In this document: piece by piece, positions 8,403 through 49,584 of the stretch
How the letters are laid out: the number at the start of each line of letters is the position of its first letter
Position numbering within the stretch: position 1 is the first letter of the stretch
Source: Parcubacteria group bacterium
GTDB lineage: Bacteria; Patescibacteriota; Minisyncoccia; Minisyncoccales; UBA10102
Reading direction: 5' to 3'
Assembly (NCBI GenBank): GCA_016203945.1
Contig: JACQLT010000002.1
Location: 797 to 64,796 of the forward strand
DNA: 64,000 bases
Program-made: the position numbers and the translations under genes
The notes under the pieces: generated by a model
Told to the model about the DNA's origin: nothing
The model's database searches: none
The model's input: only the letters and a program-made list of their open reading frames with translations

Positions 8403-9833
8403 TTACCGTTTAACTTTCACCCGCAAAAAAGCGGGGACATCCCATTTCTTCTCCTCTTCCTGGATCTCCTGAAGCTTCCCGTCCAGCTCCTGCTTGAGAT
8501 CTAGGGCGTTCTTTCTGGTTCTCTCTATTATTTCTTCCGTTTTCTCCTGTTGCCCGGCCAGGAGAATCTTTTTCACGCGCCTTGTTTTCTTTTGGACCAT
8601 ACGCGGTTTTTTCCGGGGCTCTACCGACTGCCTGCCGGCCCGCTTCGCCGAAACTTTAGCGAGGCGAGTAGGCATGGTTTTTTTCTCAGGTTCTCGGCTT
8701 ACTCTGAGTTTGTCGAAGGGCTGTTTTCCTGCCTTGCCGGCAGGCAGGCCTTCCACGCACCCCACGGCAAACAGCATAATCCTTAACTTGTCCCTGAACT
8801 CGGGGCGGAGTGTAATGCCCAGAATGATGCGGGCTTTTGGATTCAGGGAGAAAATTCCCCTGCTCACGTCAGCCACCTCATGCATCTTGACGTTCTTATC
8901 TGCTACCAGGTGAAAGAGAATACGGTCCGCTCCCTCCACCCCGTACTCGTGAAGAGAGTTCGCGAACAGTGCGTTCAGCGCCCCCTTTGCGCGCTCGGGT
9001 CCTGCAGAAACCGCAGCCGCAGCATACGCAAGGCGGCCCCTTCCCTCAAGGACCGACCGCACGTCTGCAAAATCAATATTGATAAGACCAGGACTATGCA
9101 GGGCGTCAATGAGCCCCCCCAAAGAATCGGCAAGGTTCCTGTTGAGCTGCGAAAGGGCTTGCGGAAACGGAGTGACCTTCTCTATGGTCTTAAAAATCTG
9201 CTCGTTCGGGATAACGGTGTAGGCGTTCACGAGCGGGCGGAGCTTCTCTAGCGACAAATTCGCGATGTCTTTGCGCTTCTTTCCCTCGAACTCAAAGGGT
9301 AGGGTAAAAATGCCAAGCACCAGGTTTTTCGCTTCCCGGGCTGCTTCTGCGAACACGGGAACCGCCCCGGATCCCGTTCCTCCTCCCAGAGAAGCTATGA
9401 GAATGGAGATGTCCTGCCCTTCAAAAAGTTTCTTGATGCGGTCTTTCTCAGATCGCGCCGCCTGCTCTCCAAGACCCGCATCCATGCCGCAGCCCAGGCC
9501 TCGCGTGAGCTTCTGGCCGAAAGGAAATACGCGGACTTTCCCGGAAACTTTCTTTAAGTCCTGCATGTCGGTGTTGGCCGCGAAAAAATCAGCCCTCGGG
9601 ACGCGAGACGCGATCTCCTCGACGATATTGCTTCCGCCTCCTCCGACGCCAACCACCCGGATTTTGGTCCGAGGGATATCAAACGAAGCGTCTGATTTTT
9701 TCTGCGTCCGCTTTGCCGAAGCTCCAGCGAGGCGAGCCGATTTTCTGGTCTTCTTTGCAGATCTGCGCTTTGCCTGCCTCGCCGTAGCTCGGCGAAAGCG
9801 GGTGGCCTTCTTGTTCCTACGGGCCTTTGACAT
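8403..9833 (-). CDS. ftsZ: cell division GTPase FtsZ with long basic N- and C-terminal extensions
   Basis: VVGVGGGGSNIV and GGGTGSGAVPV tubulin signatures; terminal WDVPAFLR matches the conserved FtsZ C-terminal peptide. ATG 9833 is preferred over TTG 9842 because of the promoter geometry. Confidence 0.9.
   Translation of the reverse strand: MSKARRNKKATRFRRATARQAKRRSAKKTRKSARLAGASAKRTQKKSDASFDIPRTKIRVVGVGGGGSNIVEEIASRVPRADFFAANTDMQDLKKVSGKVRVFPFGQKLTRGLGCGMDAGLGEQAARSEKDRIKKLFEGQDISILIASLGGGTGSGAVPVFAEAAREAKNLVLGIFTLPFEFEGKKRKDIANLSLEKLRPLVNAYTVIPNEQIFKTIEKVTPFPQALSQLNRNLADSLGGLIDALHSPGLINIDFADVRSVLEGRGRLAYAAAAVSAGPERAKGALNALFANSLHEYGVEGADRILFHLVADKNVKMHEVADVSRGIFSLNPKARIILGITLRPEFRDKLRIMLFAVGCVEGLPAGKAGKQPFDKLRVSREPEKKTMPTRLAKVSAKRAGRQSVEPRKKPRMVQKKTRRVKKILLAGQQEKTEEIIERTRKNALDLKQELDGKLQEIQEEEKKWDVPAFLRVKVKR
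8643..8668. repeat. GC-rich repeat copy (core CCGAAaCTTTAGCGAGG) in frame in the ftsZ C-terminal linker
   Basis: cttcgccgaaactttagcgaggcgag is 22/26 identical to 9711-9736. Translated as RLAKVSAKR. Confidence 0.7.
9711..9736. repeat. GC-rich repeat copy (core CCGAAGCTCCAGCGAGG) in frame in the ftsZ N-terminal extension
   Basis: ctttgccgaagctccagcgaggcgag, translated as ARLAGASAKR. Confidence 0.7.
9774..9798. repeat. diverged inverted copy of the same repeat in the ftsZ N-terminal extension
   Basis: rc = ctttcgccgagctacggcgaggcag, which resembles ctttgccgaagctccagcgaggcgag. Forms an inverted pair with 9711-9736. Confidence 0.5.
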
Positions 9834-9841
9834 ATTCTTCA

Positions 9842-9870
9842 AGTGTAGGGACCGGGTTGTTCTTTGTCAA
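9842..9870 (-). promoter_or_regulatory. ftsZ promoter TTGACA-N17-TACACT, 8 nt from ATG 9833
   Basis: rc of 9865-9870 = TTGACA and rc of 9842-9847 = TACACT. Only TGAAGAAT separates the -10 from the ATG. Confidence 0.55.
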
Positions 9871-10041
9871 ACCTCGTAGTAGAAATTTGATAATGCCCCA
9901 GATGATTTCTGGATCTGTTCTATGTAAACACGTTGTTCTCTTGCATTGACGCTTGTTTATCATATTGATCCGTACGGACATTAGATAGAAATTATTTTCA
10001 AATTTTCACTACGGGGTTGTACCCCCAGGCGCGTTTCCACG

Positions 10042-10074
10042 CAAAACAAAACCCCGCACGCAAGGCGTACGGGG
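10042..10074 (-). terminator. rho-independent terminator after the zinc-ribbon micro-ORF
   Basis: Minus strand: CCCCGTACGC-CTT-GCGTGCGGGG followed by TTTTGTTTTG. Confidence 0.7.
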
Positions 10075-10102
10075 AATTGGATGCTACCTATCTTAAGAGA
10101 TC

Positions 10103-10228
10103 TCAGCGAGCCGGACGCTTTGACTTGTAGCACTCTTTGCAGAATATCGGGCGACCTTCGGCTGGCTGAAAAGGCAACTCGGTAATTTTTGTCCCGCACT
10201 CAGAGCACTGCCAGTCTCCCTGGATCAT
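10103..10228 (-). CDS. stand-alone CxxC-x18-CxxC zinc-ribbon micro-protein (41 aa; 52 aa if GTG 10261)
   Basis: Below the 60-aa cut-off of the ORF track. Hand translation: MIQGDWQCSECGTKITELPFQPAEGRPIFCKECYKSKRPAR. GAGG lies upstream of the ATG. Own promoter and terminator. Confidence 0.65.
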   Translation of the reverse strand: MIQGDWQCSECGTKITELPFQPAEGRPIFCKECYKSKRPAR

Positions 10229-10316
10229 CGGCCTCGCAAAGGGTTTGTTGTTTTCTTCCACTGAATTGAAAAGTCAAATGGATATGTGATGTACCTCGAC
10301 GCGTACAGACAATCAT

Positions 10317-10345
10317 AGTATGGTATCCGTCTGCGCGAATGTCAA
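10317..10345 (-). promoter_or_regulatory. promoter TTGACA-N17-CATACT for the zinc-ribbon micro-ORF
   Basis: rc of 10340-10345 = TTGACA and rc of 10317-10322 = CATACT. Confidence 0.45.
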
Positions 10346-10354
10346 GTAAAGAGC

Positions 10355-10831
10355 TTATTGCACCCAGAGCAGTTCCACTTCAAACACGAGCGTTGAATTG
10401 GCGGGGATGCTGCCCACTGCGCGATCTCCGTAGGCTAATGCGGGAGAAATAGTGAGCTTTCGCTTCCCTCCCACTTTCATTCCCGGTATCCCCTGCTCCC
10501 ATCCTTCAATGACGCTCCTCTGCCCGATGGTGAAAGAGAAGGGCTCTCCGCGGTCGAGCGAACTGTCAAACTTCTTCCCGTCCGCCAAGGTTCCCGTGTA
10601 ATGCACGGATACCGTGCTCCCGGTTTTTGCTTCCGTTCCCGTCCCCACTACGATTTCCTCAATCCTCAATCCGTTTGGCTGTTCCATAGTTGGTGGTATA
10701 AATTGATCTTCTTGTGTCTGGAGGTTCAACAACCCCTTATTCTCCGAAGAGAAGCTGTCCGAGAACACGAAGTAGAGAATCCCTCCCGCGATGATAACGA
10801 CTCCGATACTCAACAAATGAGATAGTTTCAT
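10355..10831 (-). CDS. membrane-anchored FKBP-type peptidyl-prolyl cis-trans isomerase
   Basis: N-terminal TM, then VSVHYTGTLADGKKFDSS and GWEQGIPGMKVGGKRKLTISPALAYG. Confidence 0.92.
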   Translation of the reverse strand: MKLSHLLSIGVVIIAGGILYFVFSDSFSSENKGLLNLQTQEDQFIPPTMEQPNGLRIEEIVVGTGTEAKTGSTVSVHYTGTLADGKKFDSSLDRGEPFSFTIGQRSVIEGWEQGIPGMKVGGKRKLTISPALAYGDRAVGSIPANSTLVFEVELLWVQ

Positions 10832-10835
10832 ATTG

Positions 10836-12077
10836 CTATCTATACGAACGATGGCTTCTATCCTGATAGCCGCTTCTTCTTCGGCTCCACGGCCGCTGCT
10901 GAGACCTATACTGCGGCCTGGGAGCTACAAACTGGACCCGCGGAAGCTCGGGAAGCCTAGATATTGGCAGAGGTTTTCGGATGAGGCGCTCAATCGCACG
11001 CACCTCGTGCTGTTCCTGGGGCATGGCAAAGGTAATGGCATGGCCCTGTGCTCCTGCGCGCGCAGTCCTGCCGATGCGATGGACGTAGTCGTCTGACGTG
11101 GAAGGCAAGTCATAGTTAATCACCAGTTCAATGCCCACAACGTCAATGCCGCGGGAAGCGATGTCTGTTGCGACGAGCACGCGGTATCTTCCCGACTTGA
11201 ATCCTTCAAGGGCCTGCCTGCGCTGGCCCAGTGTCCTGTTTGAATGGATCTCTGCTGCCGCAACGCCGAGATTCTTAATGTGCCGCAAGATCTTGGTGGC
11301 CCCGTGTTTCGTCCTTGAGAACACCAGGGTCGGACCTTGATATGTCTCAAGCAGCTTTCCCAAAAGCGCTATCTTTTGTTCCCTGGGAACGATGAAAAGC
11401 TCTTGAGTGACGCCTTCTACGGTGGTGCCGCTGGGAGCCATTTCCACCCGCACCGGAAGCTTCATGGAAGCCGCGGCTATCTTCATGATCTCAGGCGGCA
11501 TGGTGGCTGAAAACAGCATGGTCTGGCGCTCTTTGGGAAGGCGCTCTAAAATCTTCCTGATCTGGGGAAGGAATCCCATGTCAAGCATGCGGTCGGCCTC
11601 GTCCAGCACGACGATACCCACTTCGTCCAGGCGAATGGTCCGCTGTTCTAAATGATCGATGAGTCTGCCCGGGGTCGCAATGATGATATGGGGCCTTTTG
11701 GAAAGGGCATGGATCTGGGGGCCTATGGAAAGCCCGCCTATAAGGACGGCGGTCCTCAATCCCAACACGCGGCTCATCTTCTGTATCTCTTCGTCAACCT
11801 GAAGGGCAAGTTCTCTGGTGGGGACGACGATAAGACCGCGCTTGCGTATCTGCTCCAAGCGCTGAAGCATGGGGATGCCAAAGGCAAGGGTCTTGCCGGT
11901 TCCCGTCTGCGCGATGCCCACCATGTCTTTCCCCTGAATTGCAATGGGAATTGCCTGGGATTGAATAGGCGTGGGTTCTGTAAACTTAAGACGCCGGAGT
12001 ATTTCTAAAATAGCCGGGGCAATGCCCAAGCCGTAAAAACTTGAGTTCGCCGCATGATATTGAACGCGGTTTTGCAT
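10836..12077 (-). CDS. DEAD-box ATP-dependent RNA helicase
   Basis: AQTGTGKT, VVLDEADRM, FSATMP, HRIGRTARAG; basic C-terminal tail. Confidence 0.93.
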   Translation of the reverse strand: MQNRVQYHAANSSFYGLGIAPAILEILRRLKFTEPTPIQSQAIPIAIQGKDMVGIAQTGTGKTLAFGIPMLQRLEQIRKRGLIVVPTRELALQVDEEIQKMSRVLGLRTAVLIGGLSIGPQIHALSKRPHIIIATPGRLIDHLEQRTIRLDEVGIVVLDEADRMLDMGFLPQIRKILERLPKERQTMLFSATMPPEIMKIAAASMKLPVRVEMAPSGTTVEGVTQELFIVPREQKIALLGKLLETYQGPTLVFSRTKHGATKILRHIKNLGVAAAEIHSNRTLGQRRQALEGFKSGRYRVLVATDIASRGIDVVGIELVINYDLPSTSDDYVHRIGRTARAGAQGHAITFAMPQEQHEVRAIERLIRKPLPISRLPELPRVQFVAPRPQYRSQQRPWSRRRSGYQDRSHRSYR

Positions 12078-12483: not shown

Positions 12484-13899
12484 TTATATACTGGTATTTG
12501 ATCTGGAACTGTTGTAATCGTCGGCTGCTTGTGCATGCACCTCAATAATTATGGCGCGGAGGTTTTCTATGTCTGTTTTAAGCTCCGCGGCTATGGCGCG
12601 GGCTTCTTCCGCAACTCCTCCTACATTTTCGCCCAAAAGCAGCGATTCATATTTCGCCTTAAGCTCTTCCATCTTTGCCTCGTTTTCAACGCTCATACTT
12701 TTAGCTTTCTCAATAAGCGGGGCTGTTGATGATGTATCAATCCCTTGCGCTTCAAGTTTTAGAATCCGCAATTCCAGCCGGCCTAAAATATGGTCAAACC
12801 GGGCCATTGCCGAGCGGTAACGATTGAGCATGCGCAATCCTTTGCCGTGGGCAACGGCAATGCGCGCCGTTTTTCCGTGATCCACATGGCCTATTGTTGT
12901 TTCAACATTTTCTCGGAAATTATCGCGAAGCGCTTTTGCGGCTTCATGAACTGCGGGCTCACGAACCTTCTGTACGGCCGGCAGTAATAAAGCGGATCGT
13001 TGTAGATCTGATAGCGCCGAATCGGTCTGATGTAAGAGCGCCCGCTCCAGTCCCAACACATCCGCAATCAAACCCTTGTCTTCCACAGCCGCAAGCAACT
13101 CAATGTCGCCCTCAACAATCTTTTTTACGGTCAGAAGCGACTGGATTGCCTCTTCTTTTCTGCCGTCTTTGATCGCCTTCTCTGCCTCAGTCGTCACGTC
13201 CGCCCTGCTCTTTGCATGGTCCCCAACCGTTATGCATACCTTTGTATCACAACCCTTGAGCCGTTCCTGTATCTTCCCAATGGTATTCTGCATCAACTCA
13301 ATCTTTTTACCAGGGATTCCTTGAATTTTAATATATGATTTAGATTGCGGGGTATCTCCTGCGCTAGGAGCAGAAACTTTACGTTGGTTTCCATCTGTAT
13401 CCTCAATCTGTGTTTCTCCTGCAGGTGCCGATTTAGTGTTGGATTTGGACTCGTTGTAGTTCTTTCCCGCGGCTGGAGCAGGAACCGCCCCTGAAGTAAA
13501 TTCTTTTTCGGGAGAATCAGCTCTGCGATCGGGAAAGCCGTGTGCGTTACCGTCTCCTGCAGATTCTTTTGTAGCAGAATCAGCTCCGGCGCCAAGCTCA
13601 TCAAGTTTTGTTAAAACTTCCTGGATGCCAGGGTCGCTTACACCAAATCTAACTAGCATCGCCCTGAGGTCAACCGTGCTAATGCCTCGAGCAAGAGCAT
13701 CCGTCACCTCATTGATCTCCGCGCCGCCAATGCCGTAGCGCAAAAGAATATCTCCAACGTGTTTGTTTGCTATTGGTATGTTTACTACTGATATTGAGGT
13801 ATTTGACCTCGAGCTGTTGTAATCGTCGGCAGAAAATACAGCCGCAGCAGAGAGTACCGCTGCCCCCACGATGAATATTGTGATTATTTTTATACGCAT
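12484..13899 (-). CDS. hypothetical secreted protein with identical 13-aa terminal peptides
   Basis: Signal peptide MRIKIITIFIVGAAVLSAAAVFS. ADDYNSSRSNTSI follows it directly and recurs as the last 13 residues. Helical C-terminal half; no family recognised. Confidence 0.6.
   Translation of the reverse strand: MRIKIITIFIVGAAVLSAAAVFSADDYNSSRSNTSISVVNIPIANKHVGDILLRYGIGGAEINEVTDALARGISTVDLRAMLVRFGVSDPGIQEVLTKLDELGAGADSATKESAGDGNAHGFPDRRADSPEKEFTSGAVPAPAAGKNYNESKSNTKSAPAGETQIEDTDGNQRKVSAPSAGDTPQSKSYIKIQGIPGKKIELMQNTIGKIQERLKGCDTKVCITVGDHAKSRADVTTEAEKAIKDGRKEEAIQSLLTVKKIVEGDIELLAAVEDKGLIADVLGLERALLHQTDSALSDLQRSALLLPAVQKVREPAVHEAAKALRDNFRENVETTIGHVDHGKTARIAVAHGKGLRMLNRYRSAMARFDHILGRLELRILKLEAQGIDTSSTAPLIEKAKSMSVENEAKMEELKAKYESLLLGENVGGVAEEARAIAAELKTDIENLRAIIIEVHAQAADDYNSSRSNTSI
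12487..12525 (-). repeat. C-terminal ADDYNSSRSNTSI coding copy
   Basis: GCC GAC GAT TAC AAC AGT TCC AGA TCA AAT ACC AGT ATA. Confidence 0.85.
13792..13830 (-). repeat. N-terminal (post-signal) ADDYNSSRSNTSI coding copy
   Basis: GCC GAC GAT TAC AAC AGC TCG AGG TCA AAT ACC TCA ATA. Same peptide; differs from 12487-12525 only at synonymous sites. Confidence 0.85.
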
Positions 13900-24370: not shown

Positions 24371-25424
24371 CGTAATATCCCAATGCCGCCAATCCCGGAA
24401 GCCGATCTCCCGCAAGAAACGCGAGCAACGCCCCCCCTCCGGTTGAGACATGACTGAACTTATCCTGCAATCCCTGCTTTCGCAAAAACGCGTTTAGATT
24501 TCCTCCGCCGGCAACCGAATACGCATGGCTCGCAATGACGGCCTGAGCCAGGGCGAGAGATCCTTTCTTATATTCCTCCTCTTCCACCCTCCCCACGGGA
24601 CCCGACCAAAATACGGTTTTTGCGTCCTTTAGCATCTCGCAAAACAGCGCGATGGTGCCAGGTCCGATATCAAAATTCAGTCCGTTGCCCGGATTCCCGT
24701 CAACTGGTTTCACAACCTTCTGCATATTCTTAAACCGTATGTTCTTTAACTCAAGCTCTCTGGCGATGAGATTGCTCACCAGAAGCGCGTCCGCGGCCTC
24801 GGAAATCGTATCCAGAAAATCCGCCTTGGTCTCCACCTTTGTGCCCCCGACGATGACGACCATGGGCTTTGCGGGGTTCTTGAGCAAGGGTTCTAGGGCC
24901 CGTACCTCTTCAAGAAGCGCCAGCCCAGCGAACGAAGGAATCAAAGAGGGCAGCTGGTCTATTGATGCATGGGCCCGATGGCTCGCGGAAAACGCTTCGT
25001 TGACGTATTGGTCTCCCAGACGAGCCAACTGTTTGGCGAACTCGGGGCTGTTCTTTTCTTCTCCTTCATGGAAACGCAGGTTTTCAAGCAAGAGCACGTC
25101 TCCCGGCTTTATCGCCAGGATTGCGTTCTCCACATCCTTGCCGACGCAGTCATCCGCCTTGTTCACAGGGATGCCGAGAAGCGAAGCCAGCTGAGAGCGT
25201 ACCGAGTTGAGCCGAAATCGCTCCACTACCTTGCCTGCGGGCCTATCCAAATGGCTTATGAGAATGACCTTTGCCCCCTCTTGCACCAGGTATCGTATGG
25301 TTCTGAGCGCGGAAACAATGCGCAAATCGTCCAGAATATTGCCCTGCTCATCTAAAGGAACGTTGAAGTCGCATCGAACAAGCACCCGTGTATTAAGGAC
25401 CTGGGCCTGCTGGATGCTCTTCAT
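24360..25424 (-). CDS. pgk: phosphoglycerate kinase (short form)
   Basis: RCDFNVPLDEQG, ISHLDRP, VVIVGGTKVETK, STGGGALLAFL. Confidence 0.92.
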   Translation of the reverse strand: MKSIQQAQVLNTRVLVRCDFNVPLDEQGNILDDLRIVSALRTIRYLVQEGAKVILISHLDRPAGKVVERFRLNSVRSQLASLLGIPVNKADDCVGKDVENAILAIKPGDVLLLENLRFHEGEEKNSPEFAKQLARLGDQYVNEAFSASHRAHASIDQLPSLIPSFAGLALLEEVRALEPLLKNPAKPMVVIVGGTKVETKADFLDTISEAADALLVSNLIARELELKNIRFKNMQKVVKPVDGNPGNGLNFDIGPGTIALFCEMLKDAKTVFWSGPVGRVEEEEYKKGSLALAQAVIASHAYSVAGGGNLNAFLRKQGLQDKFSHVSTGGGALLAFLAGDRLPGLAALGYYDGN

Positions 25425-27091
25425 TGAGAATCAAATGAAACGGTCTGTCCGGGCTCCAGGTTCCCCTGTTCGCCCCCCCCGGAAGGAGCTTTCTGTTCAA
25501 GGGCAGAAAACAGGGCTTTTCGCACTGCGTCCCGGTCTATATCTTTATGAGGCCTGTTCGTTTCCCGGTTTTGCCTTGAAGGATGAAACAAGACGGGCTC
25601 GATAGAATGCGCCTGATTGAAAGAAGGGGGGCGCCGCTGCTGTAGTTTTTTCCGGCAGGACTTGCAGTAGGTCGGGCGCTTGCCGTCCGGCTGGAACACA
25701 ACTTTCGTGTCCCTGCCGCAGATGCTGCACCTGGCGTCATATAAAGCCTGAGGCTGTTCTTGGGGCGCAAAAGGAGCAGTGCGCAGCTGAGAAGAAGGGG
25801 CTGTTGATTGAATCCCCACCCAGTCTGCGATGCTTTCCTCCACTCTGGCTACCTGAGTGCCGTACGTTTGTCTGGAAGCTGCGATGATTTCTTGTTCGTG
25901 CGAATCTGCGGGGCGCGCCTGGGGAGCGAGCGTACTCGCCGAAAAAGGCTTTCCCGCGATGCCGTCTATCATGAGTTTTACGTACGCGTGATATTTCGTA
26001 AGATTCACAAAATCCTGCAGGAGAAAGTCCGGGGAGAACTCTTTTTCAAGCACTTCCGCGTCCTCGGCTCCCACGCGGAATGTCACGATGGTTCCCATGT
26101 TTCCGAATACGGCGTCGCGCACCTGCGCCTGGTCCCCCGTTCCCAGCTGGGCTATATACTGATGACTCAGGATAAGGGCCAAGCGGTATTTTCTGGCCTC
26201 TGAAAGAATGTTTACGAAGCTCTCTGTGGCGAAGTTCTGAAACTCGTCAATGTACAAGAAGAAATCTTTGCGACTCTGTTCTGGAATATCCACGCGAGAC
26301 ATGGCAGCCAGCTGGAGCTTGGTGATGAGCAGGGCTCCCAAGAGTCTGGAGTTATCCTCCCCGATCCTCCCTTTCGCGAGATTCGCGATAAGAATTTTCT
26401 GCCCGTCCATGATTTCGCGCATGTTGATGGTGGAGTGGGTCTGACCAATGATGTTGCGCACAAGCGGGTTGGCGATGAACTGACCAACCTTGTTTTGAAT
26501 TGCGGCCGTTGCCTCTACCTCATAGCGCTGCGTGTACCTTGCGTATTCCTGCGTCCAAAACGCCTTTACCACGGGGTCCCCGATGTTGTTCACCACCCGT
26601 TTTCGGTATTCAACGTCAGCCAGCATGCGGTTTACTCCCAACAGCGTGGAACCCGGAGATTCCAGAAGCGCCAAAATCGCGTTGTTGAGAATATACTCCA
26701 TGCGGGCAGACCACACGTCAGGCCAGATCTTCTTGAACACAGACATGAGGCCGGAAGCCACCAAGTGCCGGAACTCGGGGCCCACGTCTTCCATGACGTT
26801 AAAGGCAATGGGATACGCCATGTCGGCCGGATTAAAATACACTACGTCCTGCACGCGCTCTTTCGGCACGAAATGAAGAATCTCTTCTGCGGCCTCTCCG
26901 TGCGGGTCAACGAATCCGACTCCCTCGCTCCCCACGATGTCCTGAATGATCATCTGCTCTAACATAGAGGTCTTGCCCATGCCGGTCTTGCCAAGCACAT
27001 AGAAATGGCGGCGCCTGTCGTCGCGCTTGATGCCGAATTTCTGCCGCCGATTGCGAAAAGTTGTCTCTCCGAAAAAATTAATGTCTATCAT
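25421..27091 (-). CDS. FtsK/HerA-superfamily, VirD4/TraD-like P-loop ATPase with C-terminal CxxC-x17-CxxC zinc ribbon
   Basis: YVLGKTGMGKTS (Walker A), FFLYIDEFQNF (Walker B), ARKYRLALILSHQ, then CSICGRDTKVVFQPDGKRPTYCKSC at 25655-25729. Confidence 0.75.
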   Translation of the reverse strand: MIDINFFGETTFRNRRQKFGIKRDDRRRHFYVLGKTGMGKTSMLEQMIIQDIVGSEGVGFVDPHGEAAEEILHFVPKERVQDVVYFNPADMAYPIAFNVMEDVGPEFRHLVASGLMSVFKKIWPDVWSARMEYILNNAILALLESPGSTLLGVNRMLADVEYRKRVVNNIGDPVVKAFWTQEYARYTQRYEVEATAAIQNKVGQFIANPLVRNIIGQTHSTINMREIMDGQKILIANLAKGRIGEDNSRLLGALLITKLQLAAMSRVDIPEQSRKDFFLYIDEFQNFATESFVNILSEARKYRLALILSHQYIAQLGTGDQAQVRDAVFGNMGTIVTFRVGAEDAEVLEKEFSPDFLLQDFVNLTKYHAYVKLMIDGIAGKPFSASTLAPQARPADSHEQEIIAASRQTYGTQVARVEESIADWVGIQSTAPSSQLRTAPFAPQEQPQALYDARCSICGRDTKVVFQPDGKRPTYCKSCRKKLQQRRPPSFNQAHSIEPVLFHPSRQNRETNRPHKDIDRDAVRKALFSALEQKAPSGGGEQGNLEPGQTVSFDSQ

Positions 27092-27101
27092 ATATATGAA
27101 C

Positions 27102-28373
27102 CTACTCTTGGGGAATGTTTGGGACGGCCTGCCCCTTCTTGGTTTCCACCCGCTGCACAGCTTGGGTGGTGACGGTCATCTCCGACGGGATATGGAAAAT
27201 CGTAGCCATCTCTTCGGTATTGAGCAAATACATGCCGCGTACGGCATCCGGGAAAAACGGAGGGAGGCGCTTCGTAAAGTTTCGAAAAAGGCGGCGTTTG
27301 CGCGTAAACACCCGTCTCCTATCCAAAAACCAAAGAGGAATGGTGTGTACCTTGGTTATGGTGTCCCGCAATGGACGCATATTGTTCAGGTTCCACGTGC
27401 TCAGCTGGCTGAAAAAGCTCATCACGACGGCTTTTGCCGGACTGAAGTAGTTCTCGCGCTTTGCTACGTACATAAAACGCATGGATGTCAAAAACCCGTA
27501 CTTGCCGATCTTCTCTTCAATGGCGGTGACAATGACCTTCTCCCCTGGCGTCAGCTTCATTTCCGGAGGAATGATTTCCTGGGCTTTCGGGGCTTCCGGC
27601 AGCTGGCCGGTGATCAAAAGATTGCTAGACGACTGAAGCTGACCCCTCAGAGAGGTGTCGGCTGCCTTGGGCCTGCGCACGAGCACGTCTACGATCTTTT
27701 TCCCGACCCCGTTATACTGATACTCAACTTGCGTAATCGGACGAAGCAAGAACTGAAGCCACAGCTGCTCTCCGGGTCCCAACGTCGTCAATCCTTCCAA
27801 GAGCAGAGCCAAAGGGTCCATGCGTTTCTCCTCTGGCGTCATCATGCTTTCTTCAAAAAATTTGGCGTAGGTCTTGATGGGATACACGTCTGGCTTCTCT
27901 AACATGTAATTCGTGCCCCAAAGATCCCAATCCTTGTTTGGGATATCCTGGGGAACGTTTTTCGTATAGTCCTCAACTTCGCTGAGCTCCGCATCCTGGT
28001 ATTGCGAGTAAATGGCAGACTCAATGAGCTTGCGGGAAGCCCGGGGAAAACGCATATAGAAATGGATTGATCCTTCAATGGAAACGATTTCCAGAGAAAT
28101 CCTGAGAAGATATTTTCCTTCAAACCACTTCTCCCTTGGATTGGCGGGGTCATACATCTGCCAAAATCCCATGAATACGTTCTCCATGGTTTGAATGGGC
28201 CGGAGCACTTGCCGAGGAAACATCAGCTCCAACATCATGTACGGGTTGTACGTGTCAAACACCTCCATGCGCCACCACAGCCACAAGAAGCGTGCCGGGG
28301 GAAACAGGACAAAAGGAAAAAAGAGCCACCACCAGGCGTCTAGAAATTCCCAGAGTAAGTTAAGCAAAGACAT
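27102..28373 (-). CDS. hypothetical membrane-anchored protein (partner of the ATPase)
   Basis: ATG 28373 (MSLLNLLWEFLDAWWWLFFPFVLFPP...) lies 5 nt after the upstream stop. N-terminal Trp/Phe-rich hairpin and a large soluble domain with no family recognised. Confidence 0.6.
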   Translation of the reverse strand: MSLLNLLWEFLDAWWWLFFPFVLFPPARFLWLWWRMEVFDTYNPYMMLELMFPRQVLRPIQTMENVFMGFWQMYDPANPREKWFEGKYLLRISLEIVSIEGSIHFYMRFPRASRKLIESAIYSQYQDAELSEVEDYTKNVPQDIPNKDWDLWGTNYMLEKPDVYPIKTYAKFFEESMMTPEEKRMDPLALLLEGLTTLGPGEQLWLQFLLRPITQVEYQYNGVGKKIVDVLVRRPKAADTSLRGQLQSSSNLLITGQLPEAPKAQEIIPPEMKLTPGEKVIVTAIEEKIGKYGFLTSMRFMYVAKRENYFSPAKAVVMSFFSQLSTWNLNNMRPLRDTITKVHTIPLWFLDRRRVFTRKRRLFRNFTKRLPPFFPDAVRGMYLLNTEEMATIFHIPSEMTVTTQAVQRVETKKGQAVPNIPQE

Positions 28374-28378
28374 ATATG

Positions 28379-29395
28379 CTATCTGCGATAGGAATATCTT
28401 TCCTGCTCGTCTTTGGCAAAGAGAGAGCGGTCCTGAAGGTTCAAGAGCACCGTGCTCGTCTTCACCTGGCGCAAGCGAAGCACCTCTTGTATGATAGCAT
28501 CTTTTTTCATTGGCTGCTGCTTCTCCTTGAGTATGCCCACGATAACATCCTTGACGGTGCCCGGCGCAACCCCCCACTCTGCGAGTGCGTATGTTCCCCT
28601 TCCGACGAGCACAAATCTCTTATCTTTAATGAGCTCGTTGTGCACGGTCTGCACGAGCGTGGAAACCTGTCTCTTCTGAAGTCCGAGCGCGTCAATGAGC
28701 TGGGCGACTTCGCGGAAATGGAGGGGATGACGCTTGTGCTTGAGAACGATATATGCGCGATCTCTCACTCCCCGGGGTTTTACCTCGGGCCATTCCACAA
28801 GTCCCCATTTTCCTTCAAAGGTCTGCTCAATATCTTTGGCAACTTCCAAATGCGACGCCAATATGCGATCCTCCAGGGAACGCGCAAGCTCGTTGAACTG
28901 AATGGGTTTCCCCTGCGACTCCAACCGCTGTCTGAGCTTTTGGAGAATCCCAGGAAGGATTTTGCCCAGGTCTCTTCTCTTGGTCCAGAACGAATAGAAA
29001 TTGTCGCTCTCCTTCTCTCGCACGAGATCCTGGGCGAAGGTCAAAAGAAAAGCAACTGAATTCTCAAGAGACGAGACCCGATCGGTCAGTTCCTGCAGCA
29101 GCAGGTCTTCCCGCCTGAATCCTCCTGCCTTTGCCAGCAAGGATGAGGTGAGCTCAAAGAGCTTTGAGGTCGCATGCTCTTTTTTCTCTTGATTCAAGAG
29201 TTCCTGGATTTGCTTCAATCCCCCGGCCTCAATCTGGCGGATCCGTTCGCGCGTGACGCCAAAGCTCTGTCCTATCGCTTCAAGGGTTTGCGGCCCCTCT
29301 TCCTGAAGCCCAAACCTCCGAGACAGCACATCCCTGGTTCTTTCTTCTACAGAAGCTAGAAGTGCTAATGAAAGCTTTTGATAGTCGATTGCCAT
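28379..29395 (-). CDS. DNA-binding protein: sigma-70 region-4-like HTH plus HARE-HTH-like winged helices
   Basis: RDVLSRRFGLQEEGPQTLEAIGQSFGVTRERIRQIE (region 4.2-like) and HNELIKDKRFVLVGRGTYALAEWG (HARE-HTH-like). Confidence 0.7.
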   Translation of the reverse strand: MAIDYQKLSLALLASVEERTRDVLSRRFGLQEEGPQTLEAIGQSFGVTRERIRQIEAGGLKQIQELLNQEKKEHATSKLFELTSSLLAKAGGFRREDLLLQELTDRVSSLENSVAFLLTFAQDLVREKESDNFYSFWTKRRDLGKILPGILQKLRQRLESQGKPIQFNELARSLEDRILASHLEVAKDIEQTFEGKWGLVEWPEVKPRGVRDRAYIVLKHKRHPLHFREVAQLIDALGLQKRQVSTLVQTVHNELIKDKRFVLVGRGTYALAEWGVAPGTVKDVIVGILKEKQQPMKKDAIIQEVLRLRQVKTSTVLLNLQDRSLFAKDEQERYSYRR

Positions 29396-47556: not shown

Positions 47557-49584
47557 TCACGGATTCTGCCCGAGAGAAGATATGCGAAGTTTCGCTTTCA
47601 GAAGCTGCTCGTACTCTTTCCGAAGTAGTTCGAATACCGCATCCTGATCATATTCCCGCTCCACCTTTTTTCTCCCCTCCTCCCCCATTACTTTGGCTTC
47701 TTCCGGATGAGAAAGAATATGCTCAATCGCCTCCGCCAGCTTTGCTGGATTACTGGAAGGAACCAGGAATCCCGTCTTTTTGTCATCCACCCCCTCCCTG
47801 CATCCTCGAATATCAGAAGCCACAACAGGTCTCTTCATCGCAGAGGCCTCTAAAATGGAGAGCCCCAGTCCTTCCCTGTACGAAGGCAGGACGAAGACAT
47901 CCATAACGGAATACAGCTCGATGACGTCTATGCGCTCTCCAAGAAACAGCACCTTGTCCCGGATGCCGTATGTATCAACAATGTTTTTATCCAGCGCATC
48001 TCTTTTTTCTGGCTCCTCCGGTCCTATGATAAGCAGTACTGTATTCGGAAATCGTTTTAGGATTTGGACAAACGCGGCAAAAAGAGGAATAAATCCCTTT
48101 TCTCTCACCAAGCGAGCCACAATTCCAACAACCTTCGTATTGAGAGGAACGCCTATTTCCCGCTTCTTTTGCGCGATGAACTCTTTTGAAAATCGACTCG
48201 GATCAAATTTTCGAAGGTTAATGCCTCCTCCGACATATATTACTTTTCCAGAGGGGTAAATCCCATGACCAGTTAAAAATGCGACATCTTCCTTGTTTAC
48301 CGAAAATGCCTTATGGACGATTTTTGCGATAATCCTCTCTATGGGAATAAAGATGAATTTCTTTTGCCAGGAAGAATCTTTCTGAAAATAGAGCCCGTGA
48401 ATGGTCGTGATGCGAACTGGAACTCTTGCGAAGAATGCCGCGAGCTGTCCCAAGAAACTTGCCTTGGGCGTATGAGTGTGCACAATATCAAATCGCTCTT
48501 TTTTGAAAAACCAATAAAGTCTAAATAATGCCGCAAGGTCTGCAATTGGGGTAAAGAGCCGCCTTGTAATCATAGTGGTCTGCACCTTTATTCCGGTATT
48601 TCTGATTTCTGGCACCCATTTCCCATCCGAAGATGCCGCATGCACCTCGTATTTCTCTTTCTGAAGGTAGCGCATAAAATCCAGGAGAAGAAACCGCAGA
48701 GAAATATCTGCGGACGCCACCTGGCATATTTTAAACATACGATCCTGTTCTTTGTGGGAACGAGCTCCCCTTAATTGATACCCCATCCCTTTTATCCCTC
48801 GCCTCAAAGAAGCAGGGACAAGATAGCTCACATATCCTCTTGCAATGCCAAGAGAGGCCCGCAAGCTCTTTGGGTAAAACCCCTCTCTAAGAGCTTTCTG
48901 TCTTGCCTTGAGCGCAAAGAGCGCCTGTTCTCTGTTTCTGGTCCGCGTGATGGAATCAGGGGCAAATCGGTAGGTGGTCAAATATGCAGAGAGATTCGCA
49001 GTGTCGTAGAATTTTGCAATGCGGAAATAAAGCTCGTAATCTTGAGTGTATTTCCAGCGCTCATCGTACCAGCCAACCTTGTCGAGGGCCTCTTTTCTCA
49101 TCATGATGGCCGAGTGTACGAATGGGTTAGTGAAAATAAGCGCTCTTTTGAGGGCGGCGCTATCTGTGGGAAGTTTCTTTTTGTTCGCTATGGTTCCCTC
49201 CTTGTCCATCTCATACGCCCAGGTGCCCAGAAGGGCGCAGGAAGGATTGGCTTCAAGAAACTCCACTTGAAGCTGAATCCTTTCCTTGTGTGCGATGGCT
49301 TTGTCGTCTACACGAGCAATATACTTTCCCTTCGCTTCCCTCAAGGCCTTGTTGAGAGATTTGGTAAGGCCAAGGTTTGTTTGATTGCTCAGGAGCCGGA
49401 TCCTTGCGTCTCGAACGGCGTATTCTTTGAGTATGTGAGAAGTTTCATCCGAAGAAGCATCATCTACGATAAGAAGTTCCAGATTTTTGTAGCTTTGAGA
49501 AAGAATGCTTTCTACGGACTCTTTGAGAAGCGAAGCGCGGTTGCGAGTAGCCATGACTACGGAAACAAGAGGTCTGTTTTTCAT
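47557..49584 (-). CDS. bifunctional glycosyltransferase, GT2 (N-terminal) + GT4 (C-terminal)
   Basis: VSVVMATRNRASLL..LELLIVDDASSDET (GT2). REGLGLSILEASAMKRPVVASDIRGCREGV (GT4 E-x7-E region). Confidence 0.85.
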   Translation of the reverse strand: MKNRPLVSVVMATRNRASLLKESVESILSQSYKNLELLIVDDASSDETSHILKEYAVRDARIRLLSNQTNLGLTKSLNKALREAKGKYIARVDDKAIAHKERIQLQVEFLEANPSCALLGTWAYEMDKEGTIANKKKLPTDSAALKRALIFTNPFVHSAIMMRKEALDKVGWYDERWKYTQDYELYFRIAKFYDTANLSAYLTTYRFAPDSITRTRNREQALFALKARQKALREGFYPKSLRASLGIARGYVSYLVPASLRRGIKGMGYQLRGARSHKEQDRMFKICQVASADISLRFLLLDFMRYLQKEKYEVHAASSDGKWVPEIRNTGIKVQTTMITRRLFTPIADLAALFRLYWFFKKERFDIVHTHTPKASFLGQLAAFFARVPVRITTIHGLYFQKDSSWQKKFIFIPIERIIAKIVHKAFSVNKEDVAFLTGHGIYPSGKVIYVGGGINLRKFDPSRFSKEFIAQKKREIGVPLNTKVVGIVARLVREKGFIPLFAAFVQILKRFPNTVLLIIGPEEPEKRDALDKNIVDTYGIRDKVLFLGERIDVIELYSVMDVFVLPSYREGLGLSILEASAMKRPVVASDIRGCREGVDDKKTGFLVPSSNPAKLAEAIEHILSHPEEAKVMGEEGRKKVEREYDQDAVFELLRKEYEQLLKAKLRISSLGQNP

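Follow-up and report, generated by a model that had tools for sequence, protein, structure and literature searches.

The window analyzed here, a 64,000-nucleotide stretch of DNA from a Parcubacteria group bacterium, carries on its minus strand a small gene for a zinc-finger protein (10103..10261), which was delimited from a list of open reading frames and from profile HMM scores. The reading frame comprises 52 codons from a GTG at 10261, ends with a TGA stop codon (10105..10103), and contains an internal ATG (10226..10228) with the sequence GAGG 3 nt upstream. Its Cys4 core, CSEC-x18-CKEC (10130..10207, minus strand), was located by a six-frame motif scan, and the four cysteines are invariant in two alignments of homologues (A3 and A5). 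The 41-aa sequence quoted in the first-pass annotation, which had also given the 52-aa alternative, is the product read from the internal ATG at 10228. A longer frame of 72 aa (9981..10199, minus strand) in the list of open reading frames is a different frame that runs across the terminator of the gene, as that annotation had pointed out. Its description of the gene as unannotated applies to the track of ORFs of at least 60 aa but not to GenBank, where the exact 41-aa product, read from the internal ATG, is entered under the tag HY458_00850 as a hypothetical protein (P0002 in our set, 100% identical); the contig belongs to a Parcubacteria group bacterium and is 248,619 bp long. Both this entry and deposited relatives with 87% and 76% identity to it carry the domain PF23477. 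A second, paralogous finger is present in the window in a TrwB/VirD4-like ATPase of 556 aa (25421..27091, minus strand; PF10412 and PF23477), the Cys4 core of which, CSIC-x17-CKSC, spans residues 455-479 (25655..25729, minus strand; six-frame motif scan).

The small gene has its own promoter-like site and an intrinsic terminator, both identified from the DNA sequence. The sigma-70-like element TTGACA-17-CATACT was found by a consensus scan with 10/12 matches at 10345..10317 on the minus strand, as the first-pass annotation had noted it. Promoter-like matches occur at chance level in a 4-kb stretch (4 found against 2.7 ± 1.9 expected). In three relatives (L003, L004 and L005), TTGAC at -35 and [CG]ATAAT at -10 lie in the same position, the window having CATACT as its -10 element. 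The terminator (10042..10074, minus strand), which had likewise been described before and was recognized by its fold and conservation, consists of a 10-bp stem (10074..10052, with 8/10 G-C pairs), a 3-nt loop, and the sequence TTTTGTTTTG. Its hairpin has a folding energy of -26.1 kcal/mol (z = -5.0 relative to shuffled sequences), and the hairpin and T-run are retained in L003, L004 and L005 despite base changes in both stem and loop. In the more distant L001, another hairpin with its own T-run occupies this location. Upstream, the -35 element starts 10 nt after the stop codon of an FKBP gene with no terminator in between, and therefore read-through from the helicase-FKBP genes could occur. 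Fusion of the finger to DEAD-box helicases was considered and rejected; no finger is present in the helicase that lies two genes upstream (10836..12077).

In the leader, the first 24 nt past the -10 element (10313..10290, minus strand), ATTGTCTGTACGCGTCGAGGTACA, form a block that contains a TGTAC/GTACA inverted repeat and is almost invariant in four close relatives (alignment A7), whereas indels occur elsewhere in the leader. The fold of this block was not better than those of shuffled sequences (z = -0.97), and an Rfam search of 9850..10450 assigned no family to it, the single sub-threshold match lying on the terminator. On these two grounds, a reading of the region as an RNA element was rejected.

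Neighbouring genes were compared by clustering the ORFs that lie up to 4 kb from each of 82 loci. No conserved operon partner was detected among these loci, the commonest neighbour clusters being present in at most 26/82. They include a cluster that resembles Tgt-like tRNA-ribosyltransferases, as judged by eye from its representative, and a secreted protein; both appear to be lineage-specific and hence give no functional lead, and an operon partner was dropped as a clue to function. A neighbour gene shared by 14 related loci (L066, 1818-4214, plus strand) codes for a 798-aa protein that by eye resembles an ATP-grasp enzyme broken up by an intein-like insert (CFSGDTEILTENGW ... FFCGNC). In the window itself, the FtsZ ORF (8403..9870, minus strand) has a Lys/Arg-rich N-terminal extension of about 55 residues when read from its TTG start. 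A promoter-like site (9870..9842) ends at this TTG, and the real FtsZ start is therefore probably further downstream. Two other minus-strand ORFs, 12484..13899 (471 aa) and 27102..28577 (491 aa, immediately upstream of the TrwB-like ATPase gene), gave no Pfam match at E ≤ 1e-5.

Coding evidence, distribution and start codon

The ORF behaves as a real gene by several criteria, and the conservation and substitution analysis, which had been named in advance as the way to refute it, revealed a conserved ORF with a coding-type pattern. Relative to L003 (the 87% relative), dN/dS is 0.13, and the differences fall preferentially on third codon positions (13/19 in this comparison and 26/44). Relative to L001 (the 76% relative), synonymous sites are saturated and pN is 0.18. 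Among close relatives, indels keep the frame inside the ORF and break it elsewhere. Of 1.84 billion cluster representatives searched with a profile, 4127 (at 50% identity) have the domain at E ≤ 0.001, a second database gave 5631 matches, and a scan of one genome per species confirmed loci in 236 species genomes. Of these loci, which were found with a narrow alignment, 80 were read in detail, and the match was always located inside a small ORF (80/80). Although the ORF is short and its GTG lacks a Shine-Dalgarno sequence, the possibility that it arose by chance in a non-coding intergenic spacer can practically be set aside in view of the HMM E-value of 4e-13, the low dN/dS with its third-position bias, the frame-preserving indels, and the retention of the ORF in every related genome read.

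Single-finger proteins account for 70/80 of the loci read (median 59.5 aa, range 52-90), and two-finger proteins for the other 10 (median 107.5 aa). Nearly all homologues belong to Patescibacteria (among them Saccharibacteria, Staskawicz-, Nealson-, Falkow-, Adler- and Wildermuthbacteria, and Paceibacterota), and no homologue at E ≤ 0.01 was found in the phage collection searched. The closest relatives come from an Adlerbacteria MAG (94% identity) and a groundwater Parcubacteria MAG (90%). Members of the lineage have one or two fingers, each preceded by the motif F-x-P-R-x-M, and a basic tail behind; their signature further includes M-x-Q-G-[ND]-W ahead of the first Cys and ITELPFEP past it. 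The stand-alone homologues have a median pI of 9.1 and a median C-terminal tail charge of +5. The window ORF is an orthologue of this small-protein lineage, which is widespread in Patescibacteria.

The GTG at 10261 is the favoured start codon, and we hold with reasonable confidence that translation begins there to give the 52-aa protein, because the F-x-P-R-x-M extension, which reads PFARPM in the window, is conserved upstream of the internal Met. This Met is found at position -7 from the first Cys in 68/70 single-finger homologues. In many two-finger proteins, the same motif, Met included, also stands ahead of the second finger, a position inside the polypeptide at which it cannot be a start and must be translated. 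In the three closest relatives (L003, L004 and L005; alignment A7), the GTG and the extension are both kept. L005 has a 6-nt in-frame insertion right behind the GTG, and directly upstream of the GTG the indels turn irregular. Among close relatives, the KPFARPM codons have undergone three synonymous changes and one replacement. Hence, the ATG at 10228 probably encodes an internal Met and not the start, and the GenBank model is probably 11 codons too short. On the other hand, no Shine-Dalgarno sequence was found before the GTG, and the GAGG before the ATG leaves some room for the 41-aa form.

At the other end of the gene (10088..10105, minus strand), the window has TGA where its three closest relatives have CCA or GGA. 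The relatives read on through GAT TTC TCG AGA TAG, so that five further codons (x-D-F-S-R) precede their TAG. In the window, the old tail codons are still in frame to the same TAG and have accumulated two replacements since. Because of the early TGA, the window protein would lack the conserved basic C-terminal tail. Its net charge is only +2.

Family membership and predicted fold

The search with a TIGR04272-type profile, which had been suggested as a check, placed both window fingers above the curated cut-offs. The small protein scored 48.8 bits with TIGR04272 (cut-off 36) and 48.8 bits with PF23477 (cut-off 27), and residues 450-481 of the ATPase scored 39.7 and 39.1 bits, respectively; the two fingers thus resemble each other as true homologues, both members of one catalogued family. 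The small protein accordingly belongs, by profile score, to TIGR04272/PF23477 (CxxC-x17-CxxC; zf_Tbcl_2). The first-pass annotation had derived the relationship from a shared pattern, C-x2-C...PF-x-P...RP-x-[YF]-C-x2-C. The homology that it implied stands, with minor departures: the ATPase has VVFQP in place of PF-x-P, and its Cys pairs are spaced x17 compared with x18 in the small protein. The six-frame scan for CxxC-x12-22-CxxC over the 64 kb returned three sites, the third of which (CxxC-x13-CxxC, 48068..48130, minus strand) is unrelated and lies within a GT2/GT4 glycosyltransferase (47557..49584).

Profiles of other small zinc-binding domains scored below their cut-offs with the small protein, including the zinc-ribbon profiles PF09723 (14.1 bits, cut-off 34.4) and TIGR02605 FmdB (13.8 bits, cut-off 31.3) and the LIM profile (17.9 bits, cut-off 22.9). 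The C4-type zinc finger of DksA/TraR likewise has the arrangement CxxC-x17-CxxC; neither window finger matched the DksA/TraR profiles of Pfam and NCBIfam at E ≤ 1. A search of the PDB with a 16-member profile gave a Haloferax-type CPxCG small zinc-finger protein (8q5b_A) at E = 1.3 and 12.4 bits, and no solved relative was identified in the PDB by sequence profile.

In the AlphaFold2 model of the small protein (built with 60 homologues; pLDDT 76.7), residues 13-18 and 25-29 form strands and residues 42-48 a helix. Cys19 and Cys22 are located at the turn of the hairpin, and Cys41 and Cys44 at the point where the helix begins, with a loop between the two pairs. The protein is thus predicted to adopt a treble-clef fold, with a knuckle on the β-hairpin and ligands at the helix N-terminus, and by analogy the four cysteines are predicted to hold one zinc ion. 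It had been called a zinc ribbon, a term that this model does not bear out: the second CxxC is placed at the N-terminus of a helix, in agreement with the Pfam label "probable treble clef zinc finger", which suits the predicted topology of both window fingers. A Foldseek search of the model against the PDB gave nothing below E = 1, and the best weak matches were LIM, PHD and ClpX zinc-binding domains.

Experimental information on proteins of this kind comes from Methanosarcina mazei, in which eight small CxxC-x17-CxxC paralogues (e.g., A00184 and A01980) were detected by mass spectrometry (PMC12704099). Two purified proteins contained bound zinc as determined by ICP-MS, and a link to transcription was suggested by the authors (PMC12704099). 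These results indicate that family members can be expressed on their own, free of a fusion partner, and that they bind metal. Our literature search on TIGR04272, PF23477, zf_Tbcl_2 and the Patescibacteria members found nothing else relevant, this study being the only experimental work that it returned.

Stand-alone and ATPase-tethered fingers

The ATPase matches PF10412 (TrwB_AAD_bind) with 40.3 bits (cut-off 20.5). Its AlphaFold2 model (pLDDT 80.7) starts directly with β-strands, and its best Foldseek matches were TrwB chains (1e9s, 1e9r, 1gki and 1gl6; E = 1.4e-8 and above), followed by Legionella T4CC, CagBeta and HerA. In the model, the finger is folded over residues 451-485 (pLDDT 85-91) between two linkers, 428-447 and 488-518, that are predicted to be disordered (pLDDT below 50), and it shows the same topology as the small protein (strands 451-454 and 461-464, helix 477-485). 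The finger had been described as the C-terminal module of the ATPase. It is in fact followed by about 70 residues, which in the orthologues include a conserved helix (520-532, RKEVD...L..AL) and a terminal PGET.xF motif with a disordered stretch between them (25421..25600, minus strand; residues ~498-556). The best 120 orthologues, with identities of 60-100%, each have a single PF23477 finger, in which the spacing is x17, and share the signature LYDA[RK]C..CGKDTKVVF.PDGKRP.YCK.CRKK. Some ATPase orthologues (P0149, P0157) have two fingers.

The small gene had been proposed to be a free-standing copy of the ATPase module. Its finger is 44% identical to the ATPase finger of the window and 35-50% identical to the fingers of 119 ATPase orthologues, compared with a mean of 64% to the stand-alone fingers of other genomes. 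The ATPase finger of the window, in turn, is 62-97% identical to those of the 119 orthologues. Furthermore, the spacing between the Cys pairs is x18 in 91/91 stand-alone fingers and x17 in 120/120 ATPase fingers. Based on sequence identity and Cys spacing, the two window fingers are old paralogues from two separately conserved lineages, with no recent duplication. Membership of both fingers in one Pfam/NCBIfam family and their presence in the same 64-kb window could be taken as signs that the small gene is a recent free-standing duplicate of the ATPase finger, but given the identities, the lineage-specific spacing, and the occurrence of both lineages across many Patescibacteria classes, we regard this as very improbable.

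The modular use of the domain, which had also been proposed, is borne out by the family as a whole: the finger occurs alone, in tandem arrays of two to six in multi-finger relatives, and tethered to the TrwB-like ATPase. The top 150 representatives of the family contained almost no further globular domain. Proteins of 190-250 aa form a class that recurs in other genomes (P0164, P0173, P0186, P0187 and P0204); they have two fingers connected by low-complexity linkers of the RGG, GGY or RDRS type, and then a short helix, LDxIxxxL, and a Lys/Ala-rich tail resembling histone H1.

Possible function and relation to known systems

Taking these data together, the explanation to which we incline, by a narrow measure of confidence, is that the small gene is a real member of the PF23477 family whose product would form a treble clef and likely serve as a nucleic-acid-binding module. 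The finger may work as an independent binding unit, with nucleic acid as its most likely ligand. When free, as a mildly basic protein, it could bind RNA or DNA directly, and in the ATPase, where it lies between disordered linkers, it may hold a substrate or partner close to the motor. Three observations point to nucleic acid: the fusion partner is TrwB/VirD4/HerA-like and belongs to a DNA-translocase superfamily; multi-finger relatives have RGG, GGY or RDRS linkers and Lys/Ala-rich tails; and the stand-alone homologues are basic in both overall pI and tail charge. Against this reading, the LIM, PHD and ClpX domains recovered as weak matches mostly bind proteins or peptides, and the window protein, with its charge of +2, lacks the conserved basic tail.

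The finger could instead be a protein-protein module, the free protein acting as an adaptor or competitor for the partner of the ATPase finger or for the ATPase itself, and thereby regulating the ATPase. To this we give perhaps one part of our belief in four. Apart from the weak likeness in fold and sequence to those peptide-binding domains, it accords with the almost complete conservation of the surface in the stand-alone finger (ITELPFEP, GxW), as would be expected for a fixed macromolecular partner, and with the wide occurrence of both stand-alone and finger-bearing ATPase lineages in Patescibacteria. On the other side, no neighbour of the small gene is conserved, the ATPase gene, 15 kb away in the window, is not linked to it, a shared partner is hard to reconcile with the different surface signatures of the two lineages (about 43% identity), and the RGG and Lys/Ala low-complexity regions of the relatives suggest nucleic acid.

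A role as a small Cys4 metal-handling or redox protein, one that stores or buffers zinc or carries iron in the manner of rubredoxin, appears improbable. The Cys4 site is the sole obvious functional feature, and weak rubredoxin-type matches were obtained (NF045720, E = 0.14; rubredoxins, E = 5-6), but all of them are far under the cut-offs, and the M. mazei proteins held zinc (PMC12704099). Strict conservation of the non-ligand surface and flexible fusion to an ATPase would also be unexpected for a metal buffer.

Returning to the nucleic-acid-binding module, a more far-reaching version is that the stand-alone finger is a core, highly expressed protein of Patescibacteria that binds a conserved nucleic acid or machine, e.g., the ribosome, RNA polymerase, or the DNA handled by the TrwB-like ATPase. 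We consider this rather unlikely. If it were true, a lineage-wide protein of 55-65 aa with 50-70% identity across classes would fill a gap in a basic process of these reduced bacteria, and the near-invariant 5' leader of its mRNA could be the protein's own regulatory target.

Much of this is already known: Pfam and NCBIfam both list the domain, GenBank contains the exact protein, and the free-standing form is a known architecture. The gene is ordinary in that its family is known and is common in Patescibacteria, whether as a lone finger, in tandem, or as part of the ATPase. Nevertheless, ORF filters set at 60 aa or more conceal a very widespread Patescibacteria gene family. It comprises thousands of clusters at 50% identity and is strongly conserved, and in one branch the finger is attached to a TrwB-like ATPase found across the lineage. 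As no function has been assigned to this large family, assaying a single peptide for binding would annotate thousands of genes.

Among known systems, zinc ribbons, FmdB, DksA/TraR, the Haloferax CPxCG proteins and LIM domains resemble the window fingers in that their 30-40 residues hold ligands arranged as CxxC...CxxC. In a classical zinc ribbon, both Cys pairs are on β-hairpin knuckles, whereas in the models of the window fingers the second pair is on a helix. The closest correspondence is to TIGR04272 (cxxc_cxxc_Mbark)/PF23477 itself, with which the window fingers have in common the four cysteines, F-x-P, and R-P before the third Cys; its nominal spacing is x17, in contrast to x18 in the stand-alone Patescibacteria lineage, in which the one extra residue is tolerated by the HMM. 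The M. mazei proteins are free-standing and small like the window protein but archaeal, and their homology to it is suggested by the shared domain name. TrwB (1e9s and 1gki) has the same fold as the modelled ATPase, with a TM-score of 0.61 on the target and an identity of only 13-15%. Compared with TrwB, the Patescibacteria ATPase possesses, in addition, a zinc finger on a tether and, at its C-terminal end, a conserved helix and terminal motif, and whereas TrwB/VirD4 proteins function in conjugation coupling, the ATPase neighbours examined encode phosphoglycerate kinase, a DHH-family protein and the product of a Pfam-less ORF.
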